Source: Scyliorhinus canicula (taxonomy: Eukaryota). Taken from it: 64,000 nt of DNA. Below the pieces are notes generated by a model. It saw nothing but the letters and a program-made list of their open reading frames with translations. It was not told where the DNA came from and searched no databases. Position 1 is the stretch's first letter; each line of letters begins with the position of its first letter. Of the stretch, positions 11,344-20,644 are shown in pieces. The position numbers and the translations under genes are program-made. Location: positions 109,918,622-109,982,621 of the forward strand of contig NC_052163.1 of assembly GCF_902713615.1 (NCBI RefSeq), read 5' to 3'.

Positions 11344-11444
11344 ATAGTCCAGGACTACATATTGTTTCACCAGTTTGTGCAACTCCTCTTTCATCACAGG
11401 CAGCTGTTGGAGTAATAATTCTTTTAAAATAAATTTAGAGTACG

Positions 11445-11543
11445 TGTAGAAGTCAGGTATTTTAAATACACTTAATATAGGTAAAAAGCTGTTTAAAGCA
11501 TAAATATTAATTCCCAGTTTTAAAATGAAAGAAACATACAATT
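11445..11543 (+). repeat. 99-bp inverted copy of the LTR U3 terminus (pairs with 20319-20417)
   Basis: TGTAGAAGTCAGGTATTTTAAATACAC...GAAACATACAATT is identical base for base to the reverse complement of 20319-20417. Confidence 0.97.
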
Positions 11544-13215
11544 AATCATGTAATAAGGTGGTTACTCCCAATTTGTAAATGTGCCTGGATTCCTGATGCC
11601 AATGAGAGGCACAAAGGGAGGCAGCTTCCCTTGCTGCTTGGTCCGCAAGAGCATTTCCTCTTGCTTCCATAGTGTCCTCATGAGTATGGGCTTTACATTT
11701 TAGAACTGATACTTCTTTGGGCAAGGTCATAGCTTCTAGAAGATCTCGTACTTCCTTTCCATTTCGGATAGGTGTACCTGCTGGTGTGAGAAATCCTCTT
11801 TTTCTCCACAGTTGGCCAAAATCATGTGCTACTCCAAAACCATATCTGGAGTCAGTATAGATGTTAGCAGTTTTATCTCTTGCCACATGACATGCTTCTG
11901 TAAGTGCCTTTAATTCGGCCTGCTGAGCTGATGTAGCTGGGGGCAAACTTCCTTCAGCTAATACTTCGTATGGGCTTGTGACTGCCCACCCAGCTTTCCT
12001 GATACCCTTGTCAATAAAAGAGGAACCATCTGTGAATAGGATTAAATCTGGGTTCTGTAGTGGCTCTTCTTCTACTAAGCGTACTTCTTCCATTTCCTCT
12101 ATTATTTTCACACAGTCATGCACTTCTCTCTCTCCCTTCCCTTGTTCCTCGGGAAGCGGGAGCAAGGACGATGGGTTTACAGGACTGGCTTTGTGAAAAT
12201 ATAGGTTGGGAGCTTCCAAAATTGCTGTCCATCTAGTCCATCTAGCTGATGTAACTTGTGATACTCTGTTCATGGATAGTAGAGAATGGACTGAATGTGG
12301 ACATTTAATGATTAACTTTTGGTCTAGAACAAGTCCAGATGTAATCATTACAGCTCGACATGTAGCTTCCATGGCTCGTAAGCAACTGCCAAATGCTAGT
12401 GCCACATTGTCAAGTTTAAAGGAATAGTACCCAACTGGTCTTAACTGATCACCATGTTCTTGAGCTAGTACTGCAGTCATGTAACCATCTCTTTCATGAA
12501 CAAACATGGTAAAAGGTTTTCCGTTGTTTGGAATACTTAAGGCTGGCGCTGAACACAGGACCTTTTTCAAATTCAGAAATGATTGTTTTTGTTCAGAATT
12601 GAGTTTAACTCGATCTTTTGATTTTTTGTTTCCTTTTAGAAGATCATTCAATGGCTGGCATAACTGAGTATAAGAATCAATCCAATTTCTGTTAAAATTA
12701 CAGAGTCCCAAGAAAGATCTGACTTCCTGTACAGTTGAGGGTTGTTTAGCTGCTTTGATGGCAGCTGTTCTGTTCTGAGTAAGTTCCCTTTTGCCTTTGG
12801 AAATTTTCTGTCCCAAGTAAACAACTTCTTCCTGGGTAATTTGTGCTTTTGCAAAGCTAGCTTTGTGACCATTTGTACTGAGGTGGTTCAAGACCACCCG
12901 TAAGTCCTTTTCATGGTCATCTTTATTGATGGAGGCTAACAGAACATCATCTACATACTGAATAATGGTTGAAGGCAGATCAGGCAGTTCCCTGATGTGA
13001 TTCTGCAGAGCCATGTGGTAAACAGTTGGGCTATTGTGAAAACCTTGCGGTAGTCTAGTCCATGTGTACTGTTGTTGATTGACTGTAAAAGCAAACCATG
13101 GTTGTACTTGTTTAGCTAATGGTACTGACCAGAAGCCATTTGCCATATCAATGACTGAAAACCACTGAAGGTCAGGAGTTAAAGAGTTAAAAATTGTAGA
13201 CGGATCTGCCACTAC
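11542..13215 (-). pseudogene. pol: Retroviral pol fragment: RT (N-terminally truncated), tether, RNase H; no integrase
   Basis: FSVIDMANGFWSVPL, YTWTRLPQGFHNSP, QYVDD, tether PVGYYSFKLD, RNase H FTDGSS / SAQQAELKAL / IYTDSRY / GNALAD. The dual-RNase H layout is retroviral. The first ~34 aa of the track ORF are antisense CR1. Confidence 0.93.
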
Positions 13216-13258
13216 TTTAATTCTGTAAAGTAAGAGCAATTCTGTAAAGTAAGAGGGG

Positions 13259-14194
13259 ATGGAGGCTAGGGCAGTTGCATGCTCCTCCTGTAGGATGTGG
13301 GTGGTGAGGGATACCACTGGTGTCCCCGCTGACTATACCTGCGGGAAGTGCACCCAACTCCAGCTCCTCAGAGACCGTGTTAAGGTACTGGAGCTGGAGC
13401 TGGATGAACTTCGGATCATCCGGGAGGCAGAGGGGGTCATAGAGAAGAGTTACAGGGAGGTAGTCACACCAAAGGTACTGGACAAGAGTAGCTGGGTTAC
13501 AGTCAGGGGAAAGAAAACTAACAGGCAGACAGTGCAGGGATCCCTCGTGGCCGTTCCCCTTCAAAACAAGTATACCGTTTTGGATGCTGTTGGGGGGGAT
13601 GACCTACCGGGGGAAGGCCCCAGCGGCCAGGTCTCTGGCACTGAGTCTGGCTCTGGGGCTCAGAAGGGAAGGAGGGAGCATAGAAAAGCAATAGTAATAG
13701 GAGATTCAATGGTTAGGGGAATAGATAGGAGATTCTGTGGTCGCGAGCGAGACTCCCGAAAGGTATGTTGCCTCCCGGGTGCCAGGGCCAGGGATGTCTC
13801 TGATCGTGTCTTCGGGATCCTGAAGGGGGAGGGTGAGCAGCCAGAAGTCGTGGTGCTCATTGGTACCAACGATGTAGGTAGGAAAAAGGGTGTGGAGGTA
13901 ATAAACAAGTTTAGGGAGTTAGGCTGGAAGTTAAAGGCCAGGACAGACAGAGTTGTCATCTCTGGTTTGTTGCCGGTGCCACGTGATAGCGAGGCTAGGA
14001 ATAGGGAGAGAGTGCAGTTGAACACGTGGCTGCAGGAATGGTGTAGGAGGGAGGGCTTCAGGTATTTGGATAATTGGAGCGCATTCTGGGGAAGGTGGGA
14101 CCTGTACAAGCAGGACGGGTTGCATCTGAACCAGAGGGGCACCAATATCCTGGGGGGGAGGTTTTCTAGTACTCTTCGGGAGGGTTTAAACTAA
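13259..14194 (+). CDS. CR1 ORF1: zinc finger (CxxC...CxxC), coiled coil and SGNH/GDSL esterase domain
   Basis: CSSCRMW...CGKC, LELELDEL zipper, VIGDSMVRG, LIGTNDV, DGLHLN motifs; 311 aa open. Confidence 0.9.
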   Translation: MEARAVACSSCRMWVVRDTTGVPADYTCGKCTQLQLLRDRVKVLELELDELRIIREAEGVIEKSYREVVTPKVLDKSSWVTVRGKKTNRQTVQGSLVAVPLQNKYTVLDAVGGDDLPGEGPSGQVSGTESGSGAQKGRREHRKAIVIGDSMVRGIDRRFCGRERDSRKVCCLPGARARDVSDRVFGILKGEGEQPEVVVLIGTNDVGRKKGVEVINKFRELGWKLKARTDRVVISGLLPVPRDSEARNRERVQLNTWLQEWCRREGFRYLDNWSAFWGRWDLYKQDGLHLNQRGTNILGGRFSSTLREGLN

Positions 14195-19204: not shown

Positions 19205-19505
19205 AAATTCAACCTTTCACTTAACTTTTTGTGTGTAGGCTGTGTTAGTCTCAACAACCGGCACCTGATTGATTTAACACAGTCTATAAAAATGTCCTTT
19301 TCAGGGGTCGAAGCACTGATTGATGCGGCTTTAAGACTTTTAATGGGTGAAAAAGATATTTCTTACCCCAGTCTAGCCGTGGATTCCGACTGTCTTCCGA
19401 TCTCTTCCGATTATTCCCGAAGCTTCCGTCGTCGCCTGGTCCTCCTCCGATTTCTCACGAAGCTTTCCGAACCTCTCCGAAGGTCGTATCAGAACTCCTC
19501 CCCCG

Positions 19506-19520
19506 CTGTCGACTACGCCA
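19506..19520 (-). other. Primer-binding site complementary to the tRNA-Ser 3' end
   Basis: TGGCGTAGTCGACAG, 3 nt downstream of the LTR ...TTCTTCA end; vertebrate tRNA-Ser(AGA/TGA) ends ...CCTGCCGACTACGCCA (14/15 match). Confidence 0.88.
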
Positions 19521-19523
19521 AGT

Positions 19524-20417
19524 TGAAGAATCTTAGGATTGAAGTTTATTCAATTTATGGTTACCGGTTGTTCTTGAGACATTGCTGAAACTCAGTAGAA
19601 ATTCAAGTTAAAAACTTGTCAGGTGCAAATAAGAATTGTTTTATTTGAAGTTCATTGGTTACAACTTGAAAATCATTTAAAAGGTAGTTTGTAGACAATT
19701 TGATTTTCTTCAAAGAATCACAGGAATTATCTTCTGAGACAATAGCCTGAACACAACTTTAAAAGTCAAAGTCTGAAGTCAAAGTATGAAAATGAAATAT
19801 GAATACAGAACTCTTTTCTAATTCTCTTCCTTTACTTTCTCTCTTTCTGTCTCTTTCTTCTCTTTGTCTCTTTCTGAAATGGTGGCCAAATCATCCATGG
19901 ATATACTATTTCATATCTGTCTTAAGCGATCCGATCACACCCCAATATAATCCTAATTGGTTTAAGTTAGACTCAAAACACATTTGATTTGATAACAAGC
20001 CGTCCATCTTCACAATGTAACATTACTTCCAATTATTGCTTGTCTGCAACAATGGAGACGTTATGTCATCTCATCATACTATGCGAGGCATAATTCCGAA
20101 AATATAATTGAAACTGTCTTTTAACACAGTCTAAAATGTTTCGGCTTGCATAAGTTATGGAATGTGGTTCAGGCTGTTATCACAAGTGGCCTGAAATCAG
20201 AACAATAGAGCCTTTAATGCTTCCACCTCATTGCCATGGGATTCAGCCCTTGTCCTTGGAAAAATGTGATGTTTTTATCAGTGTTTCTGTGTTTTCCAAA
20301 CTCATGACTGAGTTTAGAAATTGTATGTTTCTTTCATTTTAAAACTGGGAATTAATATTTATGCTTTAAACAGCTTTTTACCTATATTAAGTGTATTTAA
20401 AATACCTGACTTCTACA
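19524..20417 (-). mobile_element. 5' LTR of the ERV (894 bp)
   Basis: Starts TGTAGAAG, ends TTCTTCA, followed by the PBS; on the minus strand, CCAAT near 19957, TATA-like near 19905, AATAAA near 19645 and 19550. Confidence 0.88.
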
Positions 20418-20644
20418 GTACGCAATTCATTTGTTCCAATTAAGGGCCAATTTAGCGTGGCCAATTCACCTACCCTGCACATCTTTGGGTTGTGGGGGCG
20501 AAACCCACGCAGACACGGGGAGAATGTGCAAACTCCAGACGGTGACCCAGAGCCGGGGTCGAACCTGGGACCTCGTCGCCATGAGGCAGCAATGCTAACC
20601 ACTGCACTGCGCCACCGTGCGGCCCCTGCTATTGGAGTAATAAT

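Follow-up and report, generated by a model that had tools for sequence, protein, structure and literature searches.

Strand-transfer errors during reverse transcription reportedly give rise to defective proviruses, as Pulsinelli and Temin are said to have described in 1991. In the accessible text of later reports, from which the comparisons with published systems below are drawn, the asymmetric long terminal repeat (LTR) proviruses of human immunodeficiency virus (HIV) are also defective proviruses produced by such errors (PMC9278108), and proviruses of the human T-cell leukemia virus HTLV-1 lacking the 5′ LTR carry 6-bp repeats (PMC6950816). One-ended aberrant integrations, known from HIV treated with inhibitors and from avian sarcoma-leukosis virus (ASLV) with a bad end, append viral sequence in inverted orientation (PMC5041404), and autointegration gives inversion circles (PMC7197481). 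The Ginger1 DNA transposons have terminal inverted repeats (TIRs) of 40-270 bp starting with TGTNR, 4-bp CCGG/CCGT duplications and an integrase-type transposase, and are multicopy; the same report regards the chain of events from LTR to TIR as unclear and the excision mechanism as unknown, and suggests two opposed LTRs (PMC2836005). Here we analyze a retroviral unit at positions 11445-20417 of a 64,000-nt stretch of Scyliorhinus canicula DNA (NC_052163.1, 109,918,622 to 109,982,621, forward strand; hereafter the window), which is bounded by two inverted copies of the LTR's U3 end, i.e. by two U3 attachment (att) sites instead of one U3 and one U5 site.

The intact sister copies of this unit resemble the class I endogenous retroviruses (ERVs) of aquatic vertebrates in their gag-pro-pol-env order, LTRs of the form TG...CA, primer binding site (PBS), polypurine tract (PPT) and 5-bp target duplication, whereas the window copy differs from these ERVs by its inverted U3 ends, its one LTR and its lack of PPT, integrase and env. 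With the strand-transfer-error proviruses it shares a defect that would precede integration, misplaced strong-stop DNA and a normal short duplication. However, the HIV and HTLV-1 defects are, as far as the accessible text goes, deletions or inner inversions that keep the 3′ LTR/U5 end, while in the window a second U3 end takes the place of U5. The inverted viral sequence is likewise reminiscent of one-ended integrations and autointegration circles, but in the accessible descriptions the former have one host-made junction without a 5-bp repeat and the latter have att ends joined to internal viral sites; both outer junctions of the window unit are att-precise and join the host, and its inner junction does not involve an att end. 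Retrotransposons of the DIRS type have inverted repeats, a tyrosine recombinase and no integrase-type duplication. DIRS-type identity was rejected for the window unit, as the scanned frames hold no recombinase domain and a 5-bp duplication is present. A natural provirus with two U3 ends was not found in the literature searched, in which older and subscription virology is thinly covered and supplements lie outside; the U3-U3 provirus is apparently an undescribed variant of aberrant retroviral integration.

Inverted U3 ends in the window and across the genome

Comparison of the two arms confirmed the original prediction of exact inverted U3 ends with a clean target duplication. The segment 11445-11543 (plus strand) is the exact reverse complement of 20319-20417 over 99 nt (100% complementary, with no outward extension), and equals the first 99 bp of the window's single LTR; it is thus a U3 stub, inverted relative to the provirus, that serves as the second att end (TG...). 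Read inward, the two termini both give TGTAGAAG, and each adjoins a copy of GTACG (11440-11444 and 20418-20422, plus strand), giving a 5-bp target duplication flush with the TG/CA ends. The chance of such a 5-mer match is computed as ~1e-3 per site, and 5 bp is the usual length in this retrovirus family. The host flanks belong to one short interspersed element (SINE) on the minus strand, split by the insertion into its tail part (11420-11444) and its body and head (20418-20627); a second SINE copy at 21575-21727 matches the flanks, in agreement with the predicted continuity of the SINE. The 17-bp duplication of the SINE itself is also present (11403-11419 and 20628-20644), although it is not exact, 16/17 positions being identical. 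The provirus therefore departs from the canonical layout, with neither two direct LTRs nor a U3 and U5 att pair, while its target duplication has the family length.

An assembly error that placed the inverted 99 bp is highly unlikely. In its favor, and as a point against our reading, none of the short-read contigs among the matches listed, beyond which 12,876 further pieces lay, bridges 11543/4. The comparison took in 4 of 19 short-read runs, and the contigs listed contain no empty allele; positions 11372-11402 are uncovered in two runs, which proves nothing. On the other hand, one contig equals 11270-11473 without difference and spans the host/U3 junction, although its U3 part is just 29 letters long, fewer than the tool's threshold of 31; it is perhaps from the assembled individual. 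More importantly, both outer junctions yield a perfect duplication that restores the SINE, and six other loci have the same architecture with duplications of their own. An assembly gap of 100 N lies at 31138-31237 of the window, outside the element.

These loci come from a census in which the initial 29 nt of U3 served as motif, in exact form and with variants uncounted; all 361 matches were included and paired within 20 kb. The pairs comprise 43 same-strand, 9 inward and 0 outward. One inward pair, 18.4 kb long on contig C13, is a cross-pair between the unit L025 and a separate copy and was rejected as an element, leaving eight true inward U3/U3 units, i.e. the window and seven other loci, all of which were examined. 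Seven of the eight have an exact 5-bp duplication flush with both U3 ends: GTACG in the window, GGGAC in L011, ATTTT in L024, GTGCT in L025, GTGGG in L033, GTAAT in L034 and GTCAC in L035. The eighth, L032, lacks a duplication and has arms with 92.9% agreement, for which reason it was left out of the count. Removal of L025 restores a long interspersed element (LINE) at the host site, and removal of L035 a SINE. The seven units make up ~2.5% (about 1 in 40) of some 282 insertions with the exact U3 motif. They span 453-8973 bp, the shorter arm measures 63-236 nt in every one, each length and each junction differs, and none contains an integrase.

The two arms of the same unit mismatch at 6 of 929 positions summed over the seven units, where the count for L024 used the exact 87 nt only (in the BLAST alignment they reach 93 nt, the 2 mismatches falling at the junction). 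Between loci, only 37 of 806 arm pairs are identical over 99 nt. Since arms are near-identical within units and rarely identical between loci, each event must have drawn on one template. The original prediction offered a choice between a one-off accident and a mobile family; the locus is neither. The U3-U3 architecture recurs as an error class that arose independently at least seven times, and no unit has multiplied.

A mobile TIR-bounded class (of the kind of miniature inverted-repeat transposable elements or Ginger, with integrase supplied in trans) would account for arms of 63-236 bp starting with TGTAG, which fit the Ginger1 size and TGTNR motif in the accessible text of PMC2836005, as well as for a fold-back point common to L011 and L025 and a junction common to L034 and L021. 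However, these shared junctions lie on different templates, 93-95% identical, at microhomology hot spots, while no two of the seven units agree in length or junction and all lack integrase. Of 1077 candidates for a 256-bp query across 11543/4, 40 were scored; one match was full-length and 39 covered the pol part only. Another apparent multicopy case, the triplet L043-45, shares its host flanks and is a segmental duplication. The new mobile class that had been proposed is thus highly improbable.

The locus L042 (G000:C10:55555250-55556912) forms an almost perfect palindrome of LTR sequence; one of its U3 ends is intact, and truncation at U3 position 262 has shortened the other. Its target duplication is 4 bp, and it was left out of the U3-U3 count; possibly it is an eighth such unit that later lost its tip.

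Formation of DNA with two U3 ends

Alignment to the natural intact copy L017/18 places the break in the window near Pol residue 793, between RNase H and integrase. Because the break precedes integrase, the unit lacks integrase, env, PPT and 3′ LTR, which bears out the predicted absence of these parts and of a second direct LTR. At the junction between stub and pol (11543-11544) both arms end in ATT, forming a 6-bp palindrome; comparison with natural pol and U3 sequences from the family gave 0 nt, and microhomology at this junction was rejected.

Sister copies retain more explicit traces of reverse transcription. L035 has a complete LTR followed by exactly 18 nt complementary to transfer RNA (tRNA)-Ser, joined back onto U5. 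An exact 18-nt tRNA-Ser copy stands at fold-back junctions in four independent events (L035, L042, L012 and L043-45, the triplet being counted as one event and not as U3-U3), and its 3′ end pairs with a short U5 motif ~30 nt upstream, which constitutes a hot spot of fold-back. The 18-mer was confirmed against a tRNA-Ser template in the accessible part of PMC3299991. In L033 (G000:C20:18221527-18221979), a 453-bp unit, 237 nt of spliced host messenger RNA (mRNA) lie between two inverted U3 stubs. This insert comprises three exons of a host ubiquitin-like gene, presumably BAG1, with the 5′ untranslated region and the start of the ubiquitin-like domain but no introns; the parent exons, at C5:126374588-126378968, are 99-100% identical and separated by GT-AG introns. 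The junctions of L033 have microhomology of 4 nt on the side of the 159-nt stub and 1 nt on the other, and L034, whose layout is like that of the window, has ~9 nt. The antisense copy led by the stub in L026 goes no further than the PBS/U5 border, the point at which an RNA template should run out after normal priming. In L012, one and the same position marks the beginning of the antisense segment and the resumption of the sense segment, as a single break in the RNA would predict. Among direct-LTR copies, L026, L028-L031 and L021 have as 5′ LTR a U3 stub of 30-263 nt fused to internal sequence, and inner inversions occur in some of these copies. The same stubs therefore recur in the family, and aberrant plus-strand transfer seems common in it.

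DNA with two U3 ends very probably formed before integration and was then integrated by both ends. We consider an error of reverse transcriptase to be the probable cause of this DNA, with integrase insertion likely proceeding via two U3 att sites. The latter part, already proposed in the original prediction, is supported by a duplication of the family's normal length. Two U3 ends are functional in vitro with avian integrase.

In the window, PPT-primed plus-strand DNA would have halted after 99 nt. The stub may then have jumped, without homology, to the 3′ terminus that a break between RNase H and integrase had left on a genomic RNA, and primed backward synthesis through pol and gag to the PBS. 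Such a jump of a U3 stub onto a plus-sense template to prime the minus strand had been predicted, and it finds support in the sister copies, namely in the stub-mRNA join of L033 and the stop of L026. Next, a second, full-length plus-strand strong-stop DNA would pair with the PBS in the manner of a normal second strand transfer, and completion of both strands would yield a linear DNA with two U3 ends. Integrase presumably inserted both ends together into the SINE, the footprint of which is observed as the TG/CA ends flush with the 5-bp duplication. The LINE insertion and deletion described below would have followed. The resulting U3-U3 products appear to be dead ends and apparently inert, with no PPT, no 3′ LTR and no integrase.

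The main rival to an error of reverse transcriptase is that two viral DNA molecules each contributed a U3 end to one integration complex, or that broken U3 fragments were ligated beforehand, with end-joining by the host fusing the inner ends after these had been trimmed. It leads the rivals because blunt junctions fit it and because U3 may simply be the preferred end. The microhomology of 0-1 nt at the window junction and several others is in line with it, the constancy of U3 ends, as opposed to the variability of U5 ends, could tip the choice in favor of U3, and host repair factors can influence the form of defective HIV proviruses according to the accessible text of bioRxiv 10.64898/2026.03.31.715508. 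Nevertheless, we regard it as unlikely. The arms are near-identical in all seven units with a duplication, and tRNA 18-mers and spliced mRNA at junctions require reverse transcriptase. The short arm is ≤236 nt in 7/7 units (P ~4e-10 under uniform breaks, a figure in which unstable long palindromes would be under-counted). In addition, no U5-U5 element occurs among the 169 U5 motifs listed, compared with 3.3 expected at the U3 rate (P ~0.04), a modest and motif-limited difference. The sole outward U5 pair spans from one member of the fold-back triplet L043-45 to another and was rejected as an element.

Very unlikely is a scheme in which integrase inserts one end and the free end primes host repair on a nearby U3, as in Hughes-type one-ended integration, or in which a normal provirus is rearranged after integration. 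The one-ended route is documented to append viral sequence in either orientation (PMC5041404), and L042, with one clean U3 end, one truncated end and a 4-bp duplication, would suit it. However, the accessible text of that report describes large duplications or deletions rather than a short 5-bp repeat, whereas in the seven units CA is the exact endpoint, the 5-bp duplication comes next, and no inverted host DNA is present.

Apart from the unbridged junction mentioned above, several points weigh against an error of reverse transcriptase as we have drawn it. Blunt joins also fit host end-joining, and one of the eight inward units, L032, has no duplication and arms from two subfamilies, as two molecules would supply. 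An integrase preference for U3 could equally explain the asymmetry between the constant U3 and variable U5 ends, and the U5 census covered two motif variants, i.e. 169 of 209 matches. The window junction itself has no microhomology and no tRNA or mRNA trace, and its route is therefore inferred from the sister copies. Finally, a mirror route, in which a long plus strand jumps onto the stub or folds back, gives identical DNA and fits L011, L025 and L035 better.

Internal content and retrovirus family of origin

The window unit derives from a young class I (gamma/epsilon-like) ERV, of which it is a defective copy. On the minus strand it reads LTR, PBS, gag, CR1-like LINE, reverse transcriptase (RT)-RNase H and inverted stub. 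The LTR (19524-20417, minus strand; 894 bp, TG...CA) is the only full one in the window, and its U3 end forms the right terminus of the unit. The PBS (19503-19520, minus strand) is of the viral type, an imperfect complement of the 3′ end of tRNA-Ser. As a possible cause of the aberrant structure we considered a defective U5 att, given that the CA lies 3 nt from the PBS; this was rejected, since the normally integrated L013/14 is spaced alike. The gag gene (17261-19204, minus strand) is truncated, with a premature stop near 17585, and the pol fragment (11544-13214, minus strand) covers most of RT, the tether and RNase H and stops before integrase. At its N-terminus Gag has about four coiled-coil tandem repeats of 219 bp (73 aa; 17848-18801), which matched no Pfam family. 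A similar repeat is present in a Xenopus ERV.

Beyond the description in the original prediction, the unit contains a 4-kb CR1-like LINE (13215-17259, plus strand) with a GDSL-esterase open reading frame (ORF) 1 and an endonuclease-RT ORF2. It accounts for 45% of the unit, is oriented opposite to the provirus and has lost its 3′ end, and beside it ~1.48 kb of viral sequence is gone, comprising the C-terminal part of Gag, the protease and the beginning of RT. Because the 3′ end of the LINE is cut relative to another copy, later insertion plus deletion is tentatively favored over capture during reverse transcription. An 18-bp direct repeat at the 5′ end of the LINE (13219-13255) belongs to the LINE side of the junction and is not a viral duplication.

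The RT/RNase H is nearest to gamma/epsilon-like Pol by similarity (no tree was built and no genus is assigned). Pol identity is 42% with Walleye epidermal hyperplasia virus 1, the nearest named virus in the hit list, 49-55% with teleost ERVs and 63% with unnamed sequences. The intact members, natural copies L013-L020, have gag-pro-pol-env between direct LTRs together with PBS and PPT. Copy L017/18, for example, encodes Gag of 897 aa, Pol of 1161 aa (protease, RT, RNase H and integrase) and Env of 459 aa, and the intact sisters carry MLVIN_C and TLV_coat domains, TG...CA LTRs and the 5-bp duplication. In a 5-mer test allowing one mismatch, the duplication was found at the right end of 9 of 14 direct-LTR copies screened, the match in L028 being offset. 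The 3′ LTR of one full-length copy adjoins a tRNA-Glu gene detected by ARAGORN (L020:1800-1872). U3 starts also occur at ~9-9.6-kb spacing at C1:183589809-183609027 and C6:210138357-210147434; the C6 pair has a common upstream flank, and the C1 and C6 sites are probably tandem duplications.

Across L013-L054 the U3 ends are constant and the U5 att ends variable, U5 differing even between the two LTRs of L017/18. The PBS of these copies is of the Ser type, of a second type that we take to be Arg-like, or chimeric, and its complementarity to tRNA is often partial. Variable PBS and U5 ends may lie behind frequent failure of the second strand transfer.

Relation to Ginger-like elements and significance

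The link to Ginger elements that had been drawn for the window holds for the TIRs and fails for the remaining features. The 99-bp TIR starting with TGTAG falls within the 40-270 bp and TGTNR of Ginger1. Unlike Ginger1, none of the seven units has an integrase-like transposase between its TIRs, the duplications are 5-bp and varied rather than CCGG/CCGT, and several copies of one unit were not found among units with both exact 29-mers. The relation is thus one of analogy.

The seven independent cases record, in a germ line, the integration with a normal duplication of retroviral DNA whose two ends are identical U3 ends. They also provide a dated, nucleotide-level fossil record of reverse-transcription intermediates, including strong-stop fold-backs, stub jumps and mRNA capture, and L033 demonstrates that U3-U3 units can enclose host mRNA between TIRs. 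Such units would escape element finders built on direct LTRs or be classed by them as DNA transposons, and would go unnoticed in provirus surveys by polymerase chain reaction designed for one U3 and one U5 end.

The U3-U3 units offer a concrete one-step route to TIR-like ends of 60-240 bp, which is the Ginger size and the step that the Ginger report calls unclear. It is quite unlikely, in our estimate, that reverse-transcription errors in active retrovirus families constitute a standing source of TIR-bounded, integrase-recognized elements and hence that these units are snapshots of an LTR-to-TIR transition. If this were true, Ginger-like DNA transposons would find a ready-made precursor in a unit with integrase included in its long arm, an idea that can now be tested by genome-wide census.

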